A DNA stretch of 64,000 nt from an uncultured Clostridia bacterium. Its GTDB lineage: Bacteria > Bacillota > Clostridia > TANB77 > CAG-508. The stretch covers positions 95,979 through 159,978 of the forward strand of contig CAKOYQ010000001.1 of assembly GCA_934130935.1 (NCBI GenBank), written 5' to 3'. Shown here piece after piece: positions 650 through 60,693 of the stretch. Position 1 is the stretch's first letter, and each line of letters starts with the position of its first letter. The position numbers and the translations under genes were made by a program. The notes under the pieces were generated by a model. The model saw nothing but the letters and a program-made list of their open reading frames with translations, made no database searches and was not told the origin of the DNA.

Positions 650-831
650 GAGAGACTTAAATATAAGCTTTGAATGAAATGACGAATGTGCATGGAGAAA
701 TTTTAGAAATTCTTATGTAGTTTTATGGTAAGAGTTCACGATAGTGGAAAGGACCCATAAAGCAAATTAGAATTTCTTAAATTTCGTAATAAGCCGAGGA
801 ATGTAATGAAAAGCTTATATTTAAGTCTCTC
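650..831. mobile_element. core repeat element copy A with 22-bp perfect terminal inverted repeats (MITE-like)
   Basis: The left end gagagacttaaatataagcttt and the right end aaagcttatatttaagtctctc are perfect inverted repeats. The conserved interior (gaatgaaatgacgaatg...gtaatgaaaag) is shared with the copies at 27207, 47078 and 60464. Confidence 0.6.
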
Positions 832-2266: not shown

Positions 2267-4489
2267 CTAGGCTCCTCTTTCTTTTAATTTTTTATTTTTA
2301 ACTATGTCAACACCATATGTTATTGCTAATGTACAAATAGTTATAGACATCAAAATCATAATATAACTACCCTTGAAATTTGTAGCAGTAGGAACTAAAA
2401 TTTCTCTCAATAATTTAATTGAATATGTCATTGGCAAATAAGGTGTTACTGATTGAAATCCTTTATCTATTGTCTCTATTGGGAATGTACCCCCAGATGC
2501 TGCTAGTTGTAAAACAAGAATTATTAGTGCTAAAAATTTTCCAATATCTCCAAAGTTTCTAATTAGGAATTGAATGATACTTGTAAATGTAATACCTATT
2601 AAGATACTAGCAAAATAATATAATGCACTATTTTGAACTTCATATCCTAAACCTAATTTTAACAATGCTGCAACTATTATTCCTTGAATTGCGCCTATTG
2701 CTATATAAATTATATTCTGTAAAAACTTCTTTTCACTATTATGGTCTAAAATTCCAAATCTATGCTTTTGATCATAATACAATACCACATAACACATTAA
2801 TGCTCCTACCCACAAACCAATACATAAGAATAGTGGAGTAAATGCTATACCATAAGAATTAACTTTTCCATATTCTTCTGTCTTAAATTCTACTGGGTCT
2901 TCTGCAAACTCTTCAATACCTGAAAGGCTTTTTAAATCATTATTAGTAGTTTCAATATTTTTATTTATTTCATCATTAAATTCTTGTAAACCATCTGTTA
3001 ATTGTGTGCTTCCAGAATATAATGAATCTGTTCCAGCAGATAATTTATTTAAAGCTGTTTTTACTTGTATAGAACTACTGTCTAATTTCTCTAAACCACT
3101 TTTTAAACTATTACTTCCACCTAACAATTTAGTAGTTCCATTTTTTAAACTTCTTACACCAGACTGCAATGATTTAGTACCTATTTGAACTTGTGCTAAT
3201 GCAGATTGTAAATTTGTTATTCCTGATGTAATCTGTCCTAATGATTCAGACTTTTTAGCTAATAGTTGAGTACCAGTATATAACTCATTTGAACCTGCTT
3301 TTACAGCTCCTTCTAAACCTATTAATTGGTTAGCACCAGCCATTATAGTTGGCTCCATCTTAGTCAATGCAGTTTCAGATGTTTTTATACCTGTTCCATT
3401 TTTTGTTAATGATTCTATCTCTTTACTTTCAATAATATTTTTAGCTTTTATCGCTAATTTTTGAACATTAGCATCTTCGCTATTCTGTAATTCAGATAGT
3501 TCTGTTAATAACTCGGAAATTTGAGTATTTGATTCATTAACTGAATCAATATATTTATTTACATTTCCTAATAAATAATTTGTTCCATTTATATATCCTA
3601 TTGTTCCATTTGCTAGAGATGTTGCTCCATCTGCATATGCAGATAATTTAATATTTAAGTTCCCAGCCCCATTATTTATATCTGTAATACCATTTGATAA
3701 TGCTTGAACACCATCAGCTCCTTTTGCAGCTAAATCGTTAACTCCAGAATTTATTTGAGAAACCGCATTATTTAATGAATCAGAACCTGTGTTTAATGTA
3801 TCAACACCAGAGCTTACTTGATTAAGACCACTTTCTAAAGATTTACTTCCTTCATATGCTGAATTTACACCAGTATTAAATTCTGTATAACTATTGTTTA
3901 AAGTTGTAGTTCCATCATTAACTTCCTTAATTCCATTAGTCAAAGTCTCTGAACCATTTAATAATTGACCTGATGCATCAGATATCTTTTCTAAACTGTC
4001 AGGCACACTTTTTAAATTATCAGATAAATTTCCTACTATTGCACCACTAACCTTTGCTTGTAAATTAATCTCCATAGTCTTTACCGCACTGTTAATTATT
4101 TGAGAAGATAAATAGTTTGATGCTTGATTTGGACTATATGTTATAGTTGATATTTGTTTATCTGTTGTTGAAGCACTATTTAAACTCTTAGTAAAATTAC
4201 TAGGAATAGTTATAGTAGCATAATACTTACCATTTTGCATACCTTCATTTGCCTCATCTAATGTTACAGGACATATATCAAAAGTTCCATCATCTTGCAA
4301 AGATTTTAAAAATTCATTTCCCTGATTTTCATTGTTTTCGCCATCATCTAAATTAACTACAGCAATTTTTAATCCTTTCAAATCACCATATGGGTCCCAA
4401 TAAGATTTTAGATAGAAAAAACTGTATATTATTGGTATTAATAAAACAACCGCAAAAATTATAACTTCTAAAATTTTTTCTTTTTTCAT
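2267..4489 (-). CDS. YhgE/Pip domain membrane protein (phage infection protein-like)
   Basis: 740 aa with an N-terminal TM, a long extracellular region of repeated LxxGxxxLxxG-type Ser/Asn-rich segments, and a C-terminal multi-TM ABC-2-like bundle. It has the typical TetR partner immediately upstream. Confidence 0.65.
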   Translation of the reverse strand: MKKEKILEVIIFAVVLLIPIIYSFFYLKSYWDPYGDLKGLKIAVVNLDDGENNENQGNEFLKSLQDDGTFDICPVTLDEANEGMQNGKYYATITIPSNFTKSLNSASTTDKQISTITYSPNQASNYLSSQIINSAVKTMEINLQAKVSGAIVGNLSDNLKSVPDSLEKISDASGQLLNGSETLTNGIKEVNDGTTTLNNSYTEFNTGVNSAYEGSKSLESGLNQVSSGVDTLNTGSDSLNNAVSQINSGVNDLAAKGADGVQALSNGITDINNGAGNLNIKLSAYADGATSLANGTIGYINGTNYLLGNVNKYIDSVNESNTQISELLTELSELQNSEDANVQKLAIKAKNIIESKEIESLTKNGTGIKTSETALTKMEPTIMAGANQLIGLEGAVKAGSNELYTGTQLLAKKSESLGQITSGITNLQSALAQVQIGTKSLQSGVRSLKNGTTKLLGGSNSLKSGLEKLDSSSIQVKTALNKLSAGTDSLYSGSTQLTDGLQEFNDEINKNIETTNNDLKSLSGIEEFAEDPVEFKTEEYGKVNSYGIAFTPLFLCIGLWVGALMCYVVLYYDQKHRFGILDHNSEKKFLQNIIYIAIGAIQGIIVAALLKLGLGYEVQNSALYYFASILIGITFTSIIQFLIRNFGDIGKFLALIILVLQLAASGGTFPIETIDKGFQSVTPYLPMTYSIKLLREILVPTATNFKGSYIMILMSITICTLAITYGVDIVKNKKLKERGA

Positions 4490-4492
4490 AAA

Positions 4493-5065
4493 TTAATCAA
4501 CATCCTTTCTTAAACCATTTTTTAAAATCTCAGAAATACTACTTGCTATCATTTGTTCATCTAATTCTTTTTCGTGTTCATTCCATTCAAACATTAAAGC
4601 AATATACATTTTGTATATTAAAAATGAAGTAATATCTGCATTTTTATAATCAATGTAACCATTTTCTTTAGCTTTTTCTAGTTTTGTCTTTATATAATTT
4701 TGTATCTGTGTATCAATTAATTCTAAACTATTTATAATAACAGGATTTTTAAGCCATTCTGCTTCTTTTGTTATAATATTTAAAAAATCTTTATCTTTTC
4801 TATATTTTAAAAGACTATAAATAGATTGATTTACAGTTTCAAAAAAATCCAAATTTTTATTATCTATTTCTTCTACAATGTTTTTCATATTAACAATTTC
4901 TTCTTGTATAAAATATTTTAATAAGTCTTCTTTACTAGAAAAATAAGAATAAATAGTTTTTTTAGTTACATTAGCTTCTCTTGCTATTTCATCCATAGAA
5001 ACTTTTTTAAATCCATATTTATGAAATAACAACCTTGCAGATTCAATAACATTTTCTTTCTTCAT
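4493..5065 (-). CDS. TetR/AcrR family transcriptional regulator
   Basis: 190 aa with an N-terminal HTH (LFHKYGFKKVSMDEIAREANVTKKTIYSYF). It overlaps the downstream YhgE gene by a few nt, so the two form an operon. Confidence 0.7.
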   Translation of the reverse strand: MKKENVIESARLLFHKYGFKKVSMDEIAREANVTKKTIYSYFSSKEDLLKYFIQEEIVNMKNIVEEIDNKNLDFFETVNQSIYSLLKYRKDKDFLNIITKEAEWLKNPVIINSLELIDTQIQNYIKTKLEKAKENGYIDYKNADITSFLIYKMYIALMFEWNEHEKELDEQMIASSISEILKNGLRKDVD

Positions 5066-5128: not shown

Positions 5129-5164
5129 CATATTTTAAGGAAAATGTCAACACATTTGCCACAA

Positions 5165-5193
5165 AAAAACAAAAAGGCCATATTTAGCCTTTT
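5165..5193 (-). terminator. rho-independent terminator downstream of the Ca2+-ATPase gene
   Basis: Minus strand reads aaaaggctaaatatggcctttt followed by a T-rich run, about 25 nt after the stop codon. Confidence 0.55.
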
Positions 5194-5216
5194 CGTTTTT
5201 TGTTGCTATATTTTTT

Positions 5217-8015
5217 TTATTCACCTGCAACTGTATTTACTTTAAATAATTTTAATAATTCAACAATGGCTATTGGTGCTAACACTAATGCCATAACTTC
5301 TATCATGTTTCCAAGTGGTAGAATTGGTATACTAAACACGTGTCTTAAAGCAGGGACAGTCAATATTATAACCATTAAAAATGCTGAAAAAAGAACAGCC
5401 CATATTAATATCGGATTGCCTAATATTCCTGTTTTAAATATTGAATTTTTATTATCACGTATATTAAATACATGAACTAATTCAGAAAATGCTAATACGA
5501 TAAATACCATAGTTTGGCCAATCTCAATTTTAATTTCTTCTTTAGATATATATTCTCCGCCATTTGCTAATACTTCGTCCAAATTATCTATTTCTTCAGC
5601 TGATATTACCTGGTTCTCGTATGATATCATAGTTGGTAATTTATCATCAGGTGTTGCTAATCCTATTAGAAATGCTATAAGTGTAAGTAATCCAATCATT
5701 ACACCTTGATATATAATTCTAAAAGTTCTACCTTTTGTAAATATTCCCTCATCCTTTTTTATTGGTTTTCTATTCATTACATCTTTATTCGCTGGATCAA
5801 ATGCTAATGCCAATGCAGGAAATGTATCTGTTACAAGGTTTATCCATAATATATGAATTGGAAGTAAAACTTGTATCATTGTTACATCAGATATGCCAAA
5901 CCAACTAGCTATTGCTGGAGCAAATAATGTAGCCAATAGTAATACTATAACCTCTCCAACATTACATGAAATTAAAAATTGTATTACTTTTAGAATATTA
6001 TCATATATACGTCTTCCCTCTTCAACTGCTGATACTATTGTTGCAAAATTATCATCTGTTAAAATAACATCTGCAGCTTCTTTTGCAACTTCTGTTCCAA
6101 CTTTTCCCATTGCACATCCAATATCAGATGTTTTCAATGCTGGGCTATCATTTACACCATCACCTGTCATAGCAACTACTTCACCATTTGCTTGCCAAGC
6201 TTTTACTATACGGACTTTATGTTCAGGTGATACTCTTGCATACACTGAATATTTTCTTATATCTTTTGTTAATTGTTCATCAGATATCTTATCTAGCTCC
6301 AGTCCTGTTAGAGCCTCATTCTCATTTTCTAATATTCCTAATTTTTTTGCAATCGCAACTGCTGTAATTTTATGATCTCCTGTAATCATTACAGTTTTGA
6401 TTCCTGCATGTTTACATTTTTCAACAGCTTTTTTAGCCTCTTCTCTTGGCGGATCTATCATCCCAACCATTCCTATAAATGTAAGACCGCTTTCTATTGT
6501 TTTCATTTCTTCTTTTGACGGCTTATGGTCAATTTCTTTATATGCAAATGCCAATACTCTTAGTGCATCTTTTGCCATATCTTCATTGTTTTCTCTTATC
6601 CAATTAGCATATTCATCTATGTTTGTTTTTACTTCACCTTTGAATAAATATGAATTACATATTTTTAATAATTCATCTACTCCACCTTTTGTATAAATTG
6701 TATATTTTCCGTTGTTTTCATTTACAGTTGTCATTAATTTTCTTTCAGAATCAAATGGTATTTCTTCTACTCTTTTGTTTTCTCTATAAATTGATTGTTC
6801 ATAATCTTGTTTTAATGCCATATCTATTAATGCTGTTTCTGTAGGATCTCCTGTAATTTCGCAATTTTCAAGTATCCTAGAATCATTGCATAACATACAG
6901 TTGTATACTAATTTATTAAAATCATCTGTTGCATCAACTTTTTCTAAATCTACTGTTGTATCATTGCAAAATATTTTTTCAACAGTCATTTTGTTTTGTG
7001 TCAATGTTCCTGTTTTATCTGAACATATTACTGTACTGCTACCTAAAGTTTCTACAGCTGGTAATTTTTTTACAATAGCATGCTTCTTTACCATTTTTTG
7101 AACACCTATCGCTAATACTATTGTTGAAACAGCAACTAATCCTTCTGGTATTACAGCTACTGCAAGTGATACAGCTGTCATAAACATTCCAACTACACTC
7201 TTTCCTTGTAATAGACCTATAACAAATATTACTGCACATATTACTAAAGCTGCAATTCCAAGTGTTTTTCCTAAACTGTTTAATCTTGTTTGAAGTGGTG
7301 TTTCTTGTTTTTCTGTATTATTTAACATCCCTGCAATTTTACCAACTTCTGTATTCATACCAGTCTCAACTACAACTGCTTTTCCTCTACCATATGTAAT
7401 TAAACTTGATGAAAACAACATATTTACTCTATCGCCAATTCCAATTTCAGTTCCCTCGATAGCCATTATCTCTTTTTCTACTGGTACAGATTCACCTGTT
7501 AGTGAACTTTCTTGAGCTTTTAAATTAACAGCCTCTACTATTCTTAAATCAGCTGAGACATAATCTCCTGTTTCTATTATTACTATATCTCCAGGTACCA
7601 ACTCTCTCGCAGGAATAATTTGTTCCTTTCCATCTCTTATAACTTTTGCAGCATGTTCACTTAGTTTCTTTAATGCCTCTAATGATTTTTCAGCTTTGCT
7701 TTCTTGTGCTACTCCAATTACTGCATTTAGTAATACTACTATTAATATTATTATTGTATCAGTAAATCCCTCTCCTTGTGCAACTCCTACTACTCCTGAA
7801 ACTATTGCAGCTATTATTAATACTATTATTGAAAAATCTTTAAATTGAGCTATAAATTTTTTAATTAATGATTCTTTTTTCTTTTCTTTTAATTCATTAA
7901 GTCCATATTTTTCTTTATTCTCTGTCAACTTAATATTGCTTAAACCTTTTTCCAAATTTGTTCCTAGCTCTTTTTCAACATCTTTTACTTCTTTGTTAAA
8001 CCACTGCTTTTCCAT
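5217..8015 (-). CDS. calcium-translocating P-type ATPase (P2A/PMCA-like)
   Basis: 932 aa with the CSDKTGTLT phosphorylation motif, the TGDGVNDSPALK hinge, and an arrangement of about 10 TM helices. An N-terminal Cation_ATPase_N-like segment is present. Confidence 0.85.
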   Translation of the reverse strand: MEKQWFNKEVKDVEKELGTNLEKGLSNIKLTENKEKYGLNELKEKKKESLIKKFIAQFKDFSIIVLIIAAIVSGVVGVAQGEGFTDTIIILIVVLLNAVIGVAQESKAEKSLEALKKLSEHAAKVIRDGKEQIIPARELVPGDIVIIETGDYVSADLRIVEAVNLKAQESSLTGESVPVEKEIMAIEGTEIGIGDRVNMLFSSSLITYGRGKAVVVETGMNTEVGKIAGMLNNTEKQETPLQTRLNSLGKTLGIAALVICAVIFVIGLLQGKSVVGMFMTAVSLAVAVIPEGLVAVSTIVLAIGVQKMVKKHAIVKKLPAVETLGSSTVICSDKTGTLTQNKMTVEKIFCNDTTVDLEKVDATDDFNKLVYNCMLCNDSRILENCEITGDPTETALIDMALKQDYEQSIYRENKRVEEIPFDSERKLMTTVNENNGKYTIYTKGGVDELLKICNSYLFKGEVKTNIDEYANWIRENNEDMAKDALRVLAFAYKEIDHKPSKEEMKTIESGLTFIGMVGMIDPPREEAKKAVEKCKHAGIKTVMITGDHKITAVAIAKKLGILENENEALTGLELDKISDEQLTKDIRKYSVYARVSPEHKVRIVKAWQANGEVVAMTGDGVNDSPALKTSDIGCAMGKVGTEVAKEAADVILTDDNFATIVSAVEEGRRIYDNILKVIQFLISCNVGEVIVLLLATLFAPAIASWFGISDVTMIQVLLPIHILWINLVTDTFPALALAFDPANKDVMNRKPIKKDEGIFTKGRTFRIIYQGVMIGLLTLIAFLIGLATPDDKLPTMISYENQVISAEEIDNLDEVLANGGEYISKEEIKIEIGQTMVFIVLAFSELVHVFNIRDNKNSIFKTGILGNPILIWAVLFSAFLMVIILTVPALRHVFSIPILPLGNMIEVMALVLAPIAIVELLKLFKVNTVAGE

Positions 8016-8461: not shown

Positions 8462-8536
8462 GGCCCGTTGGTCAAGCGGTTAAGACGCCACCCTCTCAAG
8501 GTGGAATCATGAGTTCGATTCTCGTACGGGTCACCA
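8462..8536 (+). tRNA. tRNA-Glu (anticodon CUC as read from the loop ctCTCaa; encoded CCA)
   Basis: The acceptor stem ggcccgt/acgggtc and the D-arm gtcaagcggttaagac match the bacterial tRNA-Glu identity. The anticodon stem is ccacc/ggtgg, the loop is c-t-CTC-a-a, and the T-loop is ttcgatt. Confidence 0.85.
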
Positions 8537-20220: not shown

Positions 20221-20251
20221 GTCTTTTTGCTAATCTTTTTATTTTTTTTGA

Positions 20252-20315
20252 GGGACATTTGGGGTCGGTTCCGTTTTTGACCTTGGGCAATTTGGGGTCG
20301 GTTCTATTTTTGCCC
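20252..20315 (+). repeat. tandem pair of 31-bp GGGCAA-hairpin repeat units (first unit degenerate)
   Basis: gggacatttggggtcggttccgtttttgacc + tt + gggcaatttggggtcggttctatttttgccc + tttt. The pair lies between the nrdD stop and the hrcA promoter. The same unit recurs at 25350, 27106-27182, 27409-27485, 52116, 60406 and 60657. Confidence 0.85.
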
Positions 20316-20362
20316 TTTTGTTTGACCTATAAAAAGAACCAGTTTTTCTGGTTCTTTCAATC

Positions 20363-25335: not shown

Positions 25336-25349
25336 TTATATCCTTTCTA

Positions 25350-25413
25350 GGGCAATTCGGGGTCGGTTCCATTTTTGCCCTTGGGACATTTGGGGTCGGT
25401 TCCGTTTTTGCCC
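25350..25413 (+). repeat. tandem pair of 31-bp GGGCAA-hairpin repeat units
   Basis: gggcaattcggggtcggttccatttttgccc + tt + gggacatttggggtcggttccgtttttgccc + ttttt. The pair fills the intergenic gap between the kinase-like gene stop and the RNHCP start. Confidence 0.85.
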
Positions 25414-25420
25414 TTTTTAA

Positions 25421-27028
25421 TTATCCCTTAAAATCTCCTCCACCAAGAAATTCTTTAAGCAAAGAATTTGATGGAACTAATTCTTTTGGTATTGGTTCGA
25501 AATATCGCAATATCTCAAGTAATCTTTGTGCCTCAGCATATTCTGGTTCTGAGTTTTTGATTTGTTTTAATAATGGTTCAGCTTCAGCTTTAAGTACTCC
25601 TAATTCATAAATCAATGATGTATTAAAAATACTATCAGCATCTTCTTGGAATGGAAATATATTTCTTTCTTCCCCTCTATTTACATTATTCCACGTCTGA
25701 ATTGTTTTTTGAGGTGAATATCCTCTAAACTGATTATCTCTAACAATTCTCCTTATTAGTCTTGTATCTGTTGTTGAAATTCTATTAAAAGCATCCATAT
25801 TAAGTACTGTTAACGCACTTATATACACTTTGTATTTTTGGTCATGTGGTATTTTTTCGGTCAATTTATCATTTAAGCAATGAATTCCTTCAATTACAAG
25901 TATATCGTCTTTCTCCATTTTTATTTTATTTCCATTATATTTCTTAGTTCCTTCATGAAAATCAAATTCTGGTGTTTCAACTTCCTCCCCATTTAACAAT
26001 GCTAATAAATGCTTATTAAATAGTTCTGTATCAATAGCGTCAATACTTTCAAAGTCATATTCTCCTTTTTTATTTAGAGGTGTCTGTGATCTTTCTACAA
26101 AGTAATTATCTACAGAAATTGTTACAGGTCTCAATCCATTTATTTTAAGTTGAATACCTAATCTTTGTGCAAATGTTGTCTTTCCTGATGACGATGGCCC
26201 AGCTATTAAAATTATTTTTACACCTTTTCTTTCTGCTATTTTATCTGCTATTTGAGAAATTTTTTTCTCATGTAAAGCTTCTGACAATAGTATCATATAT
26301 TTTATTTGATTTTCTTTTACAATTCTGTTTAATCTATATACTGTTCCTACATTTAAAACTCTGTATATCGTCTCATATTCTTGTAAAGCCCATAATAATT
26401 TTTTTGTTTCTTTAAATTCTGGAATTATATTAACATTACTTGAAGTTGGATATCTTAACAAAAAACCATCACTATATTTTTGCAAGTCAAATAATTTTGT
26501 AACTCCTGTATGTGTTGCAATTATCTCATAGAAGTAATTAAAATAATCATCACAGTAATACATGTTAATATCTTCTTTTTCTTTTAAATCAAATTGTAAT
26601 CTTCCTTTTGGTGTATTTGTTTCTTTGTAAAATACTTCTGCTTCTTGTCTAGTCATTGTCCTTTTTTCTATCTTTAAATCTTTTTTAATTATTTCTTGCA
26701 TTTTCTCTTTGACTTTTTCTAGCATATCATCAGTTATTTCCATATTTTCTATATTACAATACATTGCATGTGATAATTGGTAATCTACAATTATATGTGC
26801 CTCTGGATATATATGCCAAAATGCTTTTCCCATTATAAATGTCAAAGTTCTTCTATATATTTTCATTCCTTCTTTTGAATTAATTTTAATTAGTTCTATG
26901 TCTCCATTCTTTGCAACTATGTCATCTAAATTTTTATATTCATTATTAACTTTAGCTCCTACAACTGGATATTCACTCTTTTCTATTTGTTCTTTTAATA
27001 ATTCTGATATTCTTATATTTTCTTCCAT
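25421..27028 (-). CDS. uridine kinase/phosphoribulokinase-family nucleoside kinase with N-terminal TGS-like domain
   Basis: 535 aa. A P-loop (IAGPSSSGKTTFAQRL) sits in the C-terminal half, and the N-terminal ~200 aa resemble the ThrRS/GTPase TGS fold. This architecture is conserved in Clostridia. Confidence 0.6.
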   Translation of the reverse strand: MEENIRISELLKEQIEKSEYPVVGAKVNNEYKNLDDIVAKNGDIELIKINSKEGMKIYRRTLTFIMGKAFWHIYPEAHIIVDYQLSHAMYCNIENMEITDDMLEKVKEKMQEIIKKDLKIEKRTMTRQEAEVFYKETNTPKGRLQFDLKEKEDINMYYCDDYFNYFYEIIATHTGVTKLFDLQKYSDGFLLRYPTSSNVNIIPEFKETKKLLWALQEYETIYRVLNVGTVYRLNRIVKENQIKYMILLSEALHEKKISQIADKIAERKGVKIILIAGPSSSGKTTFAQRLGIQLKINGLRPVTISVDNYFVERSQTPLNKKGEYDFESIDAIDTELFNKHLLALLNGEEVETPEFDFHEGTKKYNGNKIKMEKDDILVIEGIHCLNDKLTEKIPHDQKYKVYISALTVLNMDAFNRISTTDTRLIRRIVRDNQFRGYSPQKTIQTWNNVNRGEERNIFPFQEDADSIFNTSLIYELGVLKAEAEPLLKQIKNSEPEYAEAQRLLEILRYFEPIPKELVPSNSLLKEFLGGGDFKG

Positions 27029-27105: not shown

Positions 27106-27485
27106 GGGTAATTTGGGGGACATTTGGGGTCGGTTCCGTTTTTGCCCAATGGGGTAATTCGGGGTCGGTTCCATTTTTGCCCTTTTTCTCTTAAATATGA
27201 TAATTATTAATATTAAATATAAACTTTAAATGAAATGACGAATATGATTGGAGAAACTTTAGAAATTCTACGAAATTTTATGGAAAGAGTTCACGAGAGT
27301 GGAAGGGTGCCATAAAATAAGTTAGAATTTCTTAAGTTTCGTAATGAATCGAGGGAATGTAATGCAAAGTTTATATTTAATATTAATAAATTAGTTATGT
27401 CTCGAAAAGGGCAAAAGTGGAACCGACCCCGAATTACCCCATTGGGCAAAAACGGAACCGACCCCAAATGTCCCCCAAATTACCC
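27106..27485. mobile_element. composite palindromic element: 77-bp inverted arms (two GGGCAA-hairpin units each) flanking a ~180-bp copy of the conserved core element (MITE-like)
   Basis: The left arm 27106-27182 and the right arm 27409-27485 are reverse complements with a single mismatch. The core at 27207-27386 is homologous to the cores at 650-831, 47078-47259 and 60464-60630. Confidence 0.6.
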
Positions 27486-46858: not shown

Positions 46859-47077
46859 TTTACTTTTTCCTTTTCTTTTTTATAATTTATACATAAAGTT
46901 GCATAATATTTCATTCTTTTTTATCTTATCAATAATATTTTTTTTTTGCAATACTTATGGTTCTAAAAAAAAACAGAAAATTTTGTTTTTTTCTACATTT
47001 CTATCATTTTTCTTTCTATTTCTCCATTTTTTGTTTTTTGTAAATTTTCTGTAAATTTTATTATATTATTAATTTTA

Positions 47078-47259
47078 CTCTTAGAATACTATAAACTTTG
47101 AATGAAATTCCGAATGTGCATGTAGAACCTTTAGAAATTTTTATGTAATTTTATGGAAAGAGTTCACGAGAGTGGAAGGGTGCCATAAAATAAATTAAAA
47201 TTTCTTAAGGTTCGAAATAAACCGAGGAATGAAATGAAAAGTTTATAGTATTCTAAGAG
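47078..47259. mobile_element. core repeat element copy C with 22-bp terminal inverted repeats (MITE-like), between Alg13-like gene stop and ftsE promoter
   Basis: The left end ctcttagaatactataaacttt and the right end aaagtttatagtattctaagag are perfect inverted repeats. The core is homologous to the copies at 650, 27207 and 60464. Confidence 0.6.
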
Positions 47260-47265
47260 TATATA

Positions 47266-47745: not shown

Positions 47746-48245
47746 TAATAAATAGCACCTCCATATACAGCTTTAGGATATAATTCAAGCATCTCTTCCC
47801 ATTGCACAATAAACAAATCTGCTATTGGATATATTAACTTTCCTGTTGCAGTCTTACTATGTCTATTTGCAAAAGTTTCTATATATATTATTTTATTTCC
47901 CAAGAGCTTGCCTAAATAGCACATTGGACCTGCTGTATGGGTTCCTGTTGTAACTATATATTTAGGTCTTATTTTAAAATATAAGTAAACTGTTTTTAAG
48001 CATAAATAAAAATAAATAAAAACATATCTAAATATCTTTTTTCTTGTTCCATATGGTAAATATGATATCTTATCTCCATACTTTTCTTTTAATCCTTTAG
48101 TTGTCTCATCCTTTTCTGTTATAATGTGATAATCATATTTTTTAAATAATGGACTTAGTTGTAATAGTTCATTAAGATGCCCACCCGTACTTGATATAAA
48201 TAACACTTTTTTCTTCTTCATTTTATGTAATATGGTTAGTACCAT
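47745..48245 (-). CDS. Alg14-like glycosyltransferase membrane-anchoring subunit (PssD/Cps14F-like)
   Basis: 166 aa (VLFISSTGGHLNELLQLSP...YIVTTGTHTAGPMCYL). Its stop overlaps the Alg13-like start in an ATGA arrangement. Confidence 0.65.
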   Translation of the reverse strand: MVLTILHKMKKKKVLFISSTGGHLNELLQLSPLFKKYDYHIITEKDETTKGLKEKYGDKISYLPYGTRKKIFRYVFIYFYLCLKTVYLYFKIRPKYIVTTGTHTAGPMCYLGKLLGNKIIYIETFANRHSKTATGKLIYPIADLFIVQWEEMLELYPKAVYGGAIY

Positions 48246-48387
48246 ATCTCCTTTCTCTTTATTTTGTGTATCATTTTATTATAAAAAAATAGAAACACAA
48301 TTTAAATTATGTTTCTATTATACTTCTGTTTTTTATTTATTGTCAAGAAAATATATAATTTTAGAATCACTACTAAAGTACCAATTT

Positions 48388-49272
48388 TTATGCTCTTGGA
48401 TGTGCTTTTTTATAAATATTTTTTAATGATTCATCTTGAAACTGCATATATACTTGCGTTGATAAAATATCAGAATGTCCTAACATAGTTTGAATAGATT
48501 TTAAGTCTGCACCATTTTGTAATAAATGTGTTGCAAATGAATGACGTAAAACATGTGGTGTTATGTCTTTATCTATATGTGCTTGGTCTTTGTAATATTT
48601 TATAATTTTCCAAAATCCTTGTCTTGTTAAACGTTTTCCATTTACATTTACAAATAATGCATTTTGCTTCTCATCTTTAATCATTATTTTTCTTGCATTA
48701 AGTATATAATCTTTCAAAGCTTTTAAAGACATGTTTCCTATTGGCACTGTTCTCTCTTTTTTGCCATTTCTACATGTTGCATACCCTGTTTCTAAATTAA
48801 TATCTTCAACATTTAAAGATATAATTTCTGTTACTCTCATTCCTGTGGCATAAGCAAATTCAAGCATAGCTTTATCTCTTATTCCTTTTAAATTAACATT
48901 TTTAGGTTGTTCTAATAATAATGCAACTTCATTTGATGTTAATACATTTGGTACTCTTTTTTCTATTTTTGGAGATTGAATCCCTTCTGTTGGGTCTTTT
49001 TCCACAACTTTGTTTTTTACTTCATATTGATAAAATGACCTTATTGACGCTAATCCTCTTGATATTGTTGATGGCTTTTTTCCTATTTCTTGCATATGTG
49101 CTAGATATGTTTTTATTCCTTCTTCTGTTAACTCGCTATAATCTTCTCTTCCTTCTTCTAACATGTATTTTTCAAATTGTTTTAAATCTCTCTTATATGA
49201 TTGAAGTGTGTTTATTGACACTTTTTTCTCATTCTCCAAAAAATCAAAAAATAAGTTTAATTGCTCTTCCAT
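48388..49272 (-). CDS. xerD: site-specific tyrosine recombinase XerD/XerC-like
   Basis: It has an N-terminal SAM-like domain and a catalytic C-terminus (HVLRHSFATHLLQNGADLKSIQTMLGHSDILSTQVY). It lies next to spoIIM, as in Bacillus/Clostridium. I placed the start at the ATG with a GGGGGAA RBS. Confidence 0.8.
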   Translation of the reverse strand: MEEQLNLFFDFLENEKKVSINTLQSYKRDLKQFEKYMLEEGREDYSELTEEGIKTYLAHMQEIGKKPSTISRGLASIRSFYQYEVKNKVVEKDPTEGIQSPKIEKRVPNVLTSNEVALLLEQPKNVNLKGIRDKAMLEFAYATGMRVTEIISLNVEDINLETGYATCRNGKKERTVPIGNMSLKALKDYILNARKIMIKDEKQNALFVNVNGKRLTRQGFWKIIKYYKDQAHIDKDITPHVLRHSFATHLLQNGADLKSIQTMLGHSDILSTQVYMQFQDESLKNIYKKAHPRA

Positions 49273-52090: not shown

Positions 52091-52115
52091 TTTTTCTCTT
52101 GTTCCCCCTCTAAAT

Positions 52116-52146
52116 GGGCAATTTGGGGTCGGTTCCATTTTTGCCC
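52116..52146 (+). repeat. solo 31-bp GGGCAA-hairpin repeat unit
   Basis: gggcaatttggggtcggttccatttttgccc followed by ttttttatttt. It lies between the ftsH stop and the downstream gene's RBS. Confidence 0.85.
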
Positions 52147-52150
52147 TTTT

Positions 52151-53950
52151 TTATTTTACAAAAAACTTATTAAATTCTTGTTCATTTATCTTTTCTTTTG
52201 AAATTAGCTCTTTAGCGATTGCATGAAGTGTTTCAACATTTTGTTTTAATATTTCTTGTGCATCTCTATAAGCTATATCTATTAATTTTTTCACTTCTTT
52301 GCCTATTGCATCTTGCATATCGTCTCCAAACATTTGATATTCAAGTTGTCCATCATTATCTTTTAAAGAGATTGGTCCTATCACATCACTCATTCCATAT
52401 ACTGTAACCATATCTTTAGCAATTTGTGTTGCAACTTCTAAGTCATTACTTGCACCTGTAGAAATATCGTCTAATATTAATTTTTCTGCTGCCCTTCCTC
52501 CTAAAAGTGCAATAAGCTTTTCTTGCATTTCTGTTTTTGATATATAATATTTATCTTCATCAGATTTATACATTGTATATCCGCCAGCCATTCCTCTTGG
52601 AATAATTGAAACTTCTTTTACAGCTGTTTGCGTTGGTAAGAATTGGCTTACTATTGCATGTCCTGCTTCATGATATGCTGTTAATTTTTTGTCTTTTTCT
52701 GATATTTTTCTACTTGTCTTTTCAAGTCCTACAGTTACTTTTTTAACTGCTTCATCTAAATCTGCATTTGTTATAGCATCATGTTCTTTTTTGGTTGCTA
52801 TTATTGCTGCTTCATTTAAAATATTTGCAAGTTCTGCTCCTGTAAATCCAGCTGTGTCTTCTGCAATATTATATAATGATACATCATCTGCTAATTTTTT
52901 ATCTTTTGAATGAATTTTCAATATTGCTTCTCTTCCATTTAAATCTGGTGCTGGAATTGTTACTTGTCTGTCAAATCTACCAGGTCTTAAAAGTGCTTTA
53001 TCTAACATCTCTGGTCTGTTTGTTGCAGCTAAAACTATTATAGTTTCTTCTGTAGAAAATCCATCCATTTCAACTAATAATTGATTTAATGTTTGATTGT
53101 TTTCCGATTCTGCTCCACTATTACTTGTTCTTCTTGAGCCTATTGCATCAATTTCATCTATAAATACTATACATGGAGATAATTTTCTTGCTTTATCAAA
53201 TAGTTTTCTTACCCTAGATGCTCCAAGCCCTGCAAACATTTCTATAAACTCAGATCCACTCATTGATATAAATGGTACATCTGCCTCTCCTGCTATTGCT
53301 TTTGCTATTAATGTTTTTCCTGTTCCTGGTTTTCCATATAATAAAATACCCTTTGGAATCTTTGCTCCCATTTCTGCAAATCTTTTTGGTCTTTTTAAAA
53401 ATTCTACTATTTCTTTTAATTCTTCTTTTTCTTCGTCTAATCCAGCAATATCATCAAATGTAACTTTTGTTTTTCTTTCTGTGTCATCATATACCTCGCC
53501 CTTATCTCCAAGTCCTTGCATCTTGAATATCATTACAAATAATGCAACCATTATCAATGTTGGTAAAATCGAAAATATATATGATGGTATTTTTGACAAT
53601 ACACTTGGATTTTTAATCTCTACACTTATATTATTGTCTTCTAATACTTTTTGTTGTACTAATTCTGTAAATACTTGTGTACTTGGTATTATTGCTCTTT
53701 TTTCTTTCTCTACATCTTTCATTTTCACTTTTAAAGATGTACTTCCTGTTGTCATCTCTATTTTTTCTACATTTCCAGCTTGAATTTCTTTTATTAATTC
53801 TGCATATGTCAAAATATTGTCTTTTGCATTTTTGTCTCCATTACTTTGATATATAAAGAATATAATAATAGATGATAATAATAAAATCATTAATATAAAT
53901 ACTACATTTAATAACATTTTTAATATCTTTTTTGATTTATCTTTGTCCAT
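52151..53950 (-). CDS. ftsH: ATP-dependent zinc metalloprotease FtsH
   Basis: 599 aa with two N-terminal TMs. The AAA+ Walker A is GKPGTGKT and the SRH region is present. The HEAGHAIV zinc site is followed by the M41 protease domain. Confidence 0.92.
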   Translation of the reverse strand: MDKDKSKKILKMLLNVVFILMILLLSSIIIFFIYQSNGDKNAKDNILTYAELIKEIQAGNVEKIEMTTGSTSLKVKMKDVEKEKRAIIPSTQVFTELVQQKVLEDNNISVEIKNPSVLSKIPSYIFSILPTLIMVALFVMIFKMQGLGDKGEVYDDTERKTKVTFDDIAGLDEEKEELKEIVEFLKRPKRFAEMGAKIPKGILLYGKPGTGKTLIAKAIAGEADVPFISMSGSEFIEMFAGLGASRVRKLFDKARKLSPCIVFIDEIDAIGSRRTSNSGAESENNQTLNQLLVEMDGFSTEETIIVLAATNRPEMLDKALLRPGRFDRQVTIPAPDLNGREAILKIHSKDKKLADDVSLYNIAEDTAGFTGAELANILNEAAIIATKKEHDAITNADLDEAVKKVTVGLEKTSRKISEKDKKLTAYHEAGHAIVSQFLPTQTAVKEVSIIPRGMAGGYTMYKSDEDKYYISKTEMQEKLIALLGGRAAEKLILDDISTGASNDLEVATQIAKDMVTVYGMSDVIGPISLKDNDGQLEYQMFGDDMQDAIGKEVKKLIDIAYRDAQEILKQNVETLHAIAKELISKEKINEQEFNKFFVK

Positions 53951-57368: not shown

Positions 57369-57658
57369 GGATTAAGCATTACATGTTTTTTTACAACCTA
57401 AGGTAGGCCCAAAGGAGGAATTGCATAAAATAAATGAAAGATTTTGTGTATCTAATCTTAACACTAGAAGTTCTTATAGAAGCAAATGAGGAATGTTCAC
57501 GGGCAAACTTGTAAGTTTGAGCTTGAGTGAAAGAGGCTCATTTGATTCAATTAGAACTTCTGTGGTAAGATTGGCTTATCCAAAATCTGTAATGGTTTTT
57601 ATGCAATTCCTCCTTTGGGCCCACCTTAGGTTGTAAAAAAACATGTAACACTTAATCC
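57369..57658. mobile_element. 290-bp palindromic element with 62-bp near-perfect terminal inverted repeats (MITE-like or structured RNA)
   Basis: The left TIR (57369-57430) and the right TIR (57597-57658) differ at 3 positions. Nested internal dyads include CAAACTTgtAAGTTTG. Each TIR carries AAAGGAGGA. Confidence 0.55.
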
Positions 57659-60389: not shown

Positions 60390-60405
60390 GCATTTTCTCC
60401 TTTTA

Positions 60406-60687
60406 GGGCAAATTGGGGTCGGTTCTTTTTTTGCCCTCTTAATAATTTATTAGAATTACCAATATAAATATAAATTTTAAATGAAATGACGAATGTAATT
60501 GGAGAAACTTTAGAAATTGTATGAAATTTCATGGAAATAGTTCATGAGAATGAAAGGGTGCCATAAAATAAATTACAATTTCTTAAGTTTCGTAATGCGC
60601 CGAGGAGTGTAATGAAAAATTTATATTTATATTAGTAATTAGTATTAAAAATTAAAGGGCAAAAAAAGAACCGACCCCAATTTGCCC
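60406..60687. mobile_element. composite palindromic element: perfect 31-bp inverted GGGCAA-hairpin arms flanking core repeat copy D
   Basis: The arm at 60406-60436 is the reverse complement of the arm at 60657-60687. The core at 60464-60630 has aaaattt/aaatttt subterminal repeats. The element fills the ftsY-to-UPF0182 intergenic region. Confidence 0.65.
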
Positions 60688-60693
60688 TTTTTT

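Follow-up and report, generated by a model that had tools for sequence, protein, structure and literature searches.

Four repeats in a window of 64,000 nucleotides (nt) from an uncultured Clostridia bacterium (GenBank assembly GCA_934130935.1, contig CAKOYQ010000001.1, positions 95,979 to 159,978 of the forward strand) are copies of a new MITE (miniature inverted-repeat transposable element) family, dispersed among uncultured gut Clostridia. It is probable that these copies, here called c1 to c4, are old non-coding insertions, that their inner core has been kept as a folded, putatively functional single strand, and that copies flanked by units resembling repetitive extragenic palindromic (REP) sequences flip in orientation. 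As judged by comparison of DNA sequences, the structured core is unusually conserved. To our knowledge, essentially no mobile elements or non-coding RNAs have been described in uncultured, small-genome gut Clostridia of this kind. Coordinates refer to the window, and labels beginning with L denote loci or contigs from other genomes or strains. The copies, a fifth and divergent member, and the arms that surround some of them are listed here, with scores against a covariance model (CM) of the family where available.

623-862, + strand: full c1 element, a decayed MITE, with left end AGTTACAGGATATG and right end TCATTATCTTATAAC
648-833, + strand: c1 hairpin, with basal stem AAGAGAGACTTAAATATAAGCTTT and its complement around the conserved inner core; CM 202.5 bits
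27106-27186, + strand: left arm of c2 with ~2.4 REP-like units in tandem (GGGnAATTyGGGGTCGGTTCCnTTTTTGCCC), 99% complementary over 81 nt to 27405-27485
27187-27404, no strand assigned: 218-bp segment holding c2, inverted in some strains of the same species
27204-27389, + strand: c2 hairpin, 186 nt, without recognizable GTTAC-type ends; CM 182.5 bits
27405-27485, - strand: right arm of c2, which repeats the left one in inverted form
47076-47261, + strand: c3 hairpin, 186 nt, outer ends not recognizable; CM 192.2 bits
57356-57672, + strand: fifth, divergent member, a long hairpin of 317 bp with ends GTTAC...AATGG / CCATT...GTAAT
60405-60437, + strand: left REP-like arm of c4, 100% complementary over 33 nt to 60656-60688
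60438-60655, no strand assigned: 218-bp segment holding c4, inverted in some strains
60454-60640, + strand: c4 hairpin, 187 nt; CM 172.2 bits
60656-60688, - strand: right REP-like arm of c4

A preliminary description of this DNA had placed four copies with one conserved interior at these sites, and this is borne out. The pattern TTTAGAAATT-N36-50-CCATAAA-N6-12-AATTTCTTAA, a gapped query of 27 bases built from the invariant blocks of c1 to c4, matches only these four places in the window, all on the + strand (0 matches expected in shuffled sequences), and the mean column identity in an alignment of the four is 82%. The interior that they share is ~150 nt long and folds as an imperfect hairpin of 186-200 nt. 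The same exact pattern was used to sample the family in species-representative genomes, and the counts given below are those among the matches listed, i.e. lower bounds. At least 108 matching stretches were found in that scan, giving with the window at least 112 distinct full copies over 39 assemblies (38 GTDB species representatives and the window), with at least 15 in a single assembly. The hosts are all uncultured gut Clostridia represented by metagenome-assembled genomes, sampled from humans (Hadza, Nepal, MGYG), rabbits, mice and elsewhere, and one of them is a complete chromosome of 1.55 Mb (OV788638.1). Extrapolated from five copies in 64 kb, a genome of ~1.5 Mb could hold on the order of a hundred. 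Among the copies listed, none lies within an open reading frame (ORF), and coding potential of the element itself was rejected, the sole ORF of the consensus (26 codons) being broken by 1-nt insertions or deletions or by changes in loop length in many copies, including c1, c3 and c4. A profile hidden Markov model (HMM) search of the collected loci recovered a minority of decayed copies (55-105 bits). No Rfam 15 family reached its gathering threshold on any copy, as far as the Rfam comparison proposed earlier is concerned, and E-value scans of c1, c2 and the fifth member gave only sub-threshold hairpins of generic microRNA-precursor type. The family is absent from the IMG/VR viral contigs, phage records and plasmids searched, and a full-text literature search with the core sequence and with MITE and Clostridia terms returned no relevant paper.

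Evidence for transposition comes from the outer parts of the element. The intact form is ~255 bp long and consists of GTTAC-N4-TAATGG terminal modules, spacers of ~18-20 nt and a central rod-like hairpin of 170-200 nt; its ends sit ~35 nt outside the hairpin, with GTTAC-N4-TAATGG on the left and the complement on the right. Among the copies listed, modules of the form GTTAC..AATGG/CCATT..GTAAC bound 33, at distances of 236-257 bp, mostly 251-256. The terminal inverted repeat (TIR) module (GTAAC/GTTAC-N4-TAATGG) is present at both ends of 34/109 copies and at one or both ends of 54/109, compared with 0 at control positions, and the strict GTTAC module occurs 62 times beside a core vs 10 times elsewhere. 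The looser motif GTTAC-N6-AATGG is not enriched across the window (63 matches vs 56 expected) and is informative only at a fixed distance from cores. The preliminary description had assigned to each copy a different perfect outer repeat of 15-22 bp and had considered, as one of two options, that these are variable TIRs. The repeats in question are the fast-evolving basal stem of the hairpin, with the true ends ~35 nt farther out, and they measure 23-25 nt: the outer 10-12 nt do differ among copies, but the inner ~13 nt (AAATATAARCTTT) are common to c1 to c4, and the outer repeat of c4 contains one mismatch. On a broader scale, variation of the outer parts is nonetheless real: the arms found around the core are of at least four kinds, namely the GTTAC type, REP-like units, the L095 type and the L009 type.

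Directly outside the TIRs, perfect direct repeats of 8 bp are found in L024 (ATCTTGAT), L090 (TGTTTGCT) and L079 (CAAATTGC and ATTAATAC), and further perfect 8-bp target-site duplications (TSDs) in L062 (TAAGCATA), L043 (ATTTGAAT), L036 (GTTTTAAC), L027 (TATATGAA) and others. An automatic test for an 8-bp TSD with at most one mismatch plus a 12-bp TIR was passed by 18 copies, vs 1 when the TSD window was shifted, and a TSD with 0-1 mismatch is present in 27/43 TIR-bearing copies. In L095 and L009, two divergent copies, the long arms are unrelated, but 8-bp TSDs are present there as well. Moreover, occupancy differs between species whose genes share ~82% DNA identity. L097 carries a 253-bp element where the window, at ~36765, is empty at the orthologous site, and c3 is missing at the orthologous site in L037, a difference of ~207 nt. 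Orthologous intergenic copies in L037 (3936-4137) and L106 (823-1024) have opposite core orientation, and the window is empty there (48224-48389). Exact junctions between c3 and L037, and between L037/L106 and the window, are not definable because the intergenic DNA is too diverged. An element of ~255 bp with inverted-repeat ends and clean 8-bp TSDs is a MITE, and small non-coding size, shared TIRs, a TSD of fixed length and presence or absence between species are all found in this family, in agreement with the earlier proposal of a repeated, mobile, non-coding element. Spread occurs by insertion at a staggered cut, with the 8-bp duplication of the target shown by the TSDs; going by general transposon biology, the cut would be made by a DDE-type transposase acting in trans. 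After insertion, the ends and the basal stem would drift, behaving as a symmetric inverted repeat of DNA.

In L014 (6355-6457), GTTAC-type ends and spacers enclose a central mini-hairpin of 28 nt derived from the basal arm of the core, for a total of 103 bp; because this remnant is retained, the sequence probably arose from the MITE by internal deletion. In L021 (469-821; also L002, ~4330-4660), a copy of 353 bp with a perfect TSD (AACATTTA) contains ~100 nt of unrelated hairpin-forming sequence, which replaces or interrupts the 5' half of the core and looks like a nested insertion.

Within the window, c1 is a full MITE with decayed ends. Its TIR modules show 4/11 mismatches on the left and 2/11 on the right, its flanks are homologous to those of intact copies, for example L001, and the 8-mers that border it, ATTAAATA (615-622) and ATTGAATC (863-870), match at 6/8 positions, as a decayed TSD. 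Recognizable GTTAC ends are missing from c2, c3 and c4, and a TSD from c2 and c3; at the base of c4, a possible 8-bp direct repeat (ATTAGAAT/ATTAGTAT, 7/8) of doubtful position is weak evidence. The window copies are old insertions, fixed within the species in the case of c1 and c3, and in c2 to c4 the ends have been lost or replaced. Among contigs of other strains of the same species, c3 is identical and in the same orientation in 8/8, and the orientation of c1 is constant in 9/9. The fifth member matches the CM at 57400-57628 (65 bits, aligned over the whole model), folds with -127.3 kcal/mol (z -16.4), is flanked by 8-mers that match at 6/8 positions (TAGATATC / TAAATATT), and has sequence blocks in common with the main family, including the apical motif GUUCAC...GUGAAAG; no close relatives of it were found in the collected loci. 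In the intergenic region that it occupies, L089 has a canonical copy instead (5154-5356), with different junctions. Possible explanations are that the site is a hot spot or that one of the two elements took the place of the other.

The interior had been described as a long imperfect hairpin, and both folding energy and covariation agree. The minimum free energy of c1 is -68.4 kcal/mol on the + strand (z -9.9) vs -53.9 on the - strand. In the RNAalifold fold of the 112-sequence alignment, from which the structure statistics were taken, double compensatory changes were detected in 38 of 60 pairs. Paired cells amount to 95.2%, vs 83.1% in shuffled alignments and at most 52% when partners are slid, double-change cells number 749 vs 179, and 0/500 shuffles reached any of the observed measures. 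Covariation, which the preliminary description had suggested looking for, is strong, and further copies were found in the fifth member and the wider family. The apex, previously considered a loop of ~26 nt, is a covarying 5-bp helix (UUCAC/GUGGA) with a small, variable tetra- or pentaloop cap (GAGA, GAUA, UUUA, UUUUA), and it rests on a conserved purine-rich 6x6 internal loop (AAAGAG/AGGGUG). The apical stem is extended in divergent copies. A second irregular region, GAAUGAAAUGACGAAUG vs CGAGGAAUGUAAUGAAA, is held by isolated covarying pairs.

The two strands of the hairpin are not equivalent. In the inner helices, G·U pairs outnumber A·C combinations by 198 to 20, or 65 to 20 when two wobble-dominated columns are left out, whereas the outer stem, which serves as an internal control for mutation bias, has 42 G·U and 49 A·C. 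One U·G wobble is kept in 84/112 copies and is otherwise replaced only by U-A or C-G. Because the excess is confined to the inner helices, the folded strand would be the + strand of the window, with the outer stem acting as a symmetric inverted repeat at the DNA level. The inner core of c1 is 98.6% identical to those of L053 and L061, at non-orthologous sites in other species, where coding DNA is ~82% identical; the basal stems of these copies differ at ~1 position in 5, and stem and ends have diverged. The basal stem of c1 resembles those of L001, L026, L037, L053 and L077, and several stems reappear in further genomes as marks of subfamilies. Within the set of 43 TIR-bearing copies, a decayed TSD goes with twice as many TIR mismatches but with no drop in core identity (0.902 vs 0.904).

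Altogether, covariation, the inner G·U bias and the 98.6% identity of the core point to selection on a single strand, probably at the RNA level, and from these alignments we infer purifying selection on one folded strand of the core, most likely RNA. The inner ~150 nt, made up of two irregular, purine-rich internal-loop regions and an apical 5-bp hairpin, would retain their sequence, preserve their pairing by compensatory change and tolerate G·U pairs in a strand-specific manner. The likeliest form would be an RNA made from the + strand of the window, as a putative platform for protein binding or processing. An independently made RNA or a form in single-stranded DNA is possible for the core. 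A bolder proposal, which is tentative and on the doubtful side, is that the ~150-nt rod with purine-rich loops is a 'ribo-MITE', i.e. a functional bacterial RNA of a new class that transposon ends carry along and multiply. It would be under host-level purifying selection in at least 38 species, and where long inverted repeats flank it, DNA inversion could switch its strand, so that the RNA could be phase-variable. A core promoter pair, TTCACG-17-TAAAAT, was considered and rejected, since length variants of the apical stem would break it. A strict rule of orientation was also discarded: all window copies lie on the + strand, but among other loci 8 have copies in the same orientation and 5 are mixed.

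Several findings weigh against old MITE copies with a selected fold. Insertion polymorphism between strains, for which a check had been proposed, is not seen within the window's species, the sites of c1, c3 and c4 being filled in all strain contigs, and occupancy differs only between species; this suggests that mobility is ancient in the window's species. The copies c2 to c4, with no GTTAC ends and no convincing TSD, are assigned to transposition through homology to intact copies. A search for an autonomous partner had been proposed, and ~0.9 Mb of collected loci and the viral contigs yielded neither a transposase nor an autonomous element whose ends match: in neither set was a TSD-flanked pair of TIRs detected at a distance of 0.33-4 kb, a TIR scan of the viral contigs gave nothing, and clustering of ORFs around 108 loci revealed no protein family enriched near copies. 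The exact 27-base pattern by which the family was collected sits in the core, which inflates the apparent conservation of the core, and the HMM search does find some decayed copies. Single-stranded DNA, too, tolerates G·T wobbles and tandem G·A pairs, so the G·U bias would fit either RNA or single-stranded DNA. No conserved promoter was found in or beside the element, and no canonical terminator is predicted in it. Finally, orientation relative to neighboring genes is mixed, with 47 antisense and 26 sense among the listed copies that lie between two genes of the same direction, and a simple role in cis on neighboring mRNAs would not apply to most copies.

The most serious alternative, although we regard it as improbable, is a purely selfish MITE, with no RNA or host function, whose core is needed for transposition by the transposase or a host factor, e.g. 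as an internal binding site or enhancer, or is conserved through recent spread between species. TIRs, TSDs and filled and empty sites are what such an element would leave, copies within a genome are closer to each other (mean identity 0.945) than to copies elsewhere (0.922), and the pattern-based collection favors conserved cores while some decayed copies exist. However, the ends that a transposase would recognize show less conservation than the core, about half of the copies lack them, and the core is conserved even where TSDs and TIRs have decayed, as in c1. Recent horizontal spread would have kept the stem and ends as alike as the core, which is not the case, and the family was not seen in the phage, plasmid and viral collections searched. 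The G·U excess of the inner helices, moreover, needs a constraint on a single strand.

A role at mRNA 3' ends, as a bidirectional terminator or a stabilizer like REP, SPRITE or ERIC sequences, is less likely again. It is suggested by the position of copies ~40-50 nt past stop codons in either orientation, by the high stability of the hairpins and by a basal stem formed by an A-tract/T-tract pair (AAAGAAA...TTTCTTT). However, the stem is AT-rich and 170-200 nt long, lacks a free U-tract and is no canonical terminator, and stability by itself leaves the conserved asymmetric internal loops and the strand-specific G·U bias unexplained.

The flipping of some copies is tied to the units around them. 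The REP-like unit is an imperfect palindrome of 33 nt, GGGCAA..GGGGTCGGTTCC..TTGCCC, richer in G+C, that occurs singly, in tandem or as inverted pairs. Homologous units (TGCAATTGGGGACGTTTCCTTTTTCACA) flank the cores in L046 and L059, and cores between inverted REP-like units are found in five copies (c2, c4, L046, L059 and probably L023). The arms of c2 and those of c4 both enclose exactly 218 nt. In strain contigs L117 and L121, the 218-bp segment of c2 is reverse-complemented, with one REP-like unit fewer on both arms, a symmetric change that implies concerted evolution, e.g. gene conversion within the palindrome. The 218-bp segment of c4 is inverted in L125 and L127, that of L125 being the reverse complement of the window sequence with 2 mismatches. 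A further contig (ERZ4560700 NODE_147) has c2 unflipped and c4 flipped, which indicates that the two flip independently. Flipping is seen only in c2 and c4, which have long perfect arms, and c1 and c3 are constant. As the simplest cause, we infer homologous recombination between the arms, so that recombination between inverted REP-like arms would flip the 218-bp segment in natural strains. Such recombination would explain the 99-100% likeness of the arms, the opposite orientation of the L037 and L106 copies and the finding that, in GTTAC-type elements, the core faces either way with respect to the asymmetric spacers. The 255-bp GTTAC element minus two 18-nt modules measures 219 nt, close to the 218 nt between the arms of c2 and of c4. 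REP-like arms may thus have replaced the TIR modules in c2 and c4, although the wider spacing in L046 and L059 makes a coincidence possible. Extension of the palindrome by template switching was considered as an origin of the arms and is unlikely, given the asymmetric spacer of 17-21 nt between arms and hairpin.

Independent inversion of the c2 and c4 segments among strains of one species, together with the opposite orientation of the orthologous L037 and L106 copies, could also be expected of an inverton, in which the flipping segment would switch an orientation-dependent promoter, terminator or RNA for neighboring genes. Such a switch appears rather unlikely, slightly more so than the 3'-end role: only copies with long perfect arms flip, as ordinary homologous recombination predicts, no invertase gene was seen nearby, and no conserved promoter is present, the core's only promoter-like hexamer pair being broken by variation in apical-stem length.

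Least probable is the model of insertion into the centers of pre-existing palindromes, in which the ~186-nt core is itself the mobile unit and enters REP doublets, other MITEs or terminators, whose arms are then copy-specific; IS621/IS110-type elements do target REPs, the same core sits within at least four unrelated kinds of outer arm and in both orientations relative to asymmetric GTTAC-type spacers, and every REP-like inverted pair seen (two in the window, L046, L059) encloses a core, but no core-less REP-like inverted pair was found and the strict GTTAC module is concentrated beside cores, so that, without empty targets, the model fails its defining test, while TSDs lie outside the outer arms and not at the base of the core, the orthologous empty sites (window ~36765 and L037) have neither a palindrome nor either stem arm, the short GTTAC element in L014 looks like a deletion derivative, and orientation flips are accounted for by the arm recombination seen in strains. 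The preliminary description had favored this model on the ground that two copies are nested in hairpin arms. The nesting of c2 and c4 is real, but their arms permit inversion and are not an insertion target.

The REP-like units form a second repeat family, resembling REP or SPRITE elements, and other members of 33-35 nt lie at 20251-20324, 25349-25422 and 52115-52155. A T-run that follows them on the + strand gives them the appearance of terminators directed against the - strand genes. In L120 (ERZ27229799 k119_228777), upstream of the gene orthologous to 25421-27028, the c2 locus is followed by a MinC gene and a penicillin-binding-protein gene in place of the RNase Y-like gene, a rearrangement whose breakpoint coincides with the right REP-like arm of c2 or adjoins it. 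A database look-up of the RNase Y-like protein beside c2 gave no exact record.

Correia/NEMIS elements of Neisseria, ERIC of Enterobacteriaceae and RUP of Streptococcus pneumoniae are small, non-coding intergenic MITEs that would form a long hairpin if transcribed (PMC3184786). Like them, the Clostridia elements are dispersed, measure 100-260 bp, have TIRs and TSDs and are predicted to form a single long hairpin. They have no sequence similarity to these families, however, and their TSD is 8 bp long without a fixed target. Correia elements have a TA motif at their flanks. ERIC-type elements are likewise flanked by a TA motif (PMC3184786). A further difference is that in the Clostridia elements the interior exceeds the ends in conservation, has been retained in 38 species and has a G·U bias that is strand-specific. 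We know of no cognate insertion sequence for the Clostridia hairpin family. In the Bacillus cereus group, bcr1 repeats of ~155 bp are flanked by direct repeats, lie at non-conserved positions and are transcribed, and compensatory changes keep their RNA structure (PMC3184786). For a mobile repeat whose RNA fold is under selection, bcr1 offers the nearest precedent. The Clostridia family differs from it in its 8-bp TSDs and its one rod-like hairpin with purine-rich internal loops, and the two have no sequence relationship.

REP sequences form inverted doublets (REPINs) that RAYT transposases mobilize. The arms of c2 and c4 fit the description of REP and REPIN sequences as short palindromic units and inverted doublets, and each of the two copies resembles a REP doublet whose spacer is long. 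The core, however, is 5-6x longer than a REP and does not fit. Neither GTAG/CGTC tags nor a RAYT gene was seen on reading the REP-like units, without a systematic test. HUH/RAYT-type mobilization yields no TIRs with 8-bp TSDs, both of which intact Clostridia elements have. As in the phase-variable invertons of gut bacteria, both orientations of a segment between inverted repeats exist in natural populations, but no promoter is supported, the flipped segment is itself almost palindromic and flips are limited to copies with long perfect arms. A long, conserved and covarying hairpin is also a feature of structured RNAs that Rfam holds from Clostridia and gut metagenomes (Clostridiales-1, TwoAYGGAY, HEARO/omega RNA); unlike these, the copies described here fall below every Rfam 15 threshold.

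As an abundant and easily spotted repeat, the family may help in typing strains and in spotting assembly errors, since assemblies break at long palindromes and invertible segments. It also gives a handle on a putative transposase that makes 8-bp staggered cuts, for which IS6, ISL3, IS256, IS1595 and IS66, families that produce duplications of this length, would be the first candidates. The strain inversions indicate that inverted REP-like arms make such elements recombination hot spots. The core is a candidate structured RNA outside Rfam, with internal loops conserved beyond the neighboring protein-coding genes. If its fold is functional, Firmicutes would have, besides bcr1, a second well-documented example of transposition spreading an RNA structure under selection.

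The window has a G+C content of 28-29%, its long ORFs are nearly all on the - strand, and the GC skew of the + strand is -0.17 to -0.29 throughout, which, together with the direction of the ORFs, indicates that the whole window lies on one replichore. In all five elements, the purine-rich strand coincides with the lagging-strand sequence (+). The sole Rfam match in the window at gathering threshold is a tRNA gene at 8462-8533 on the + strand (61 bits).

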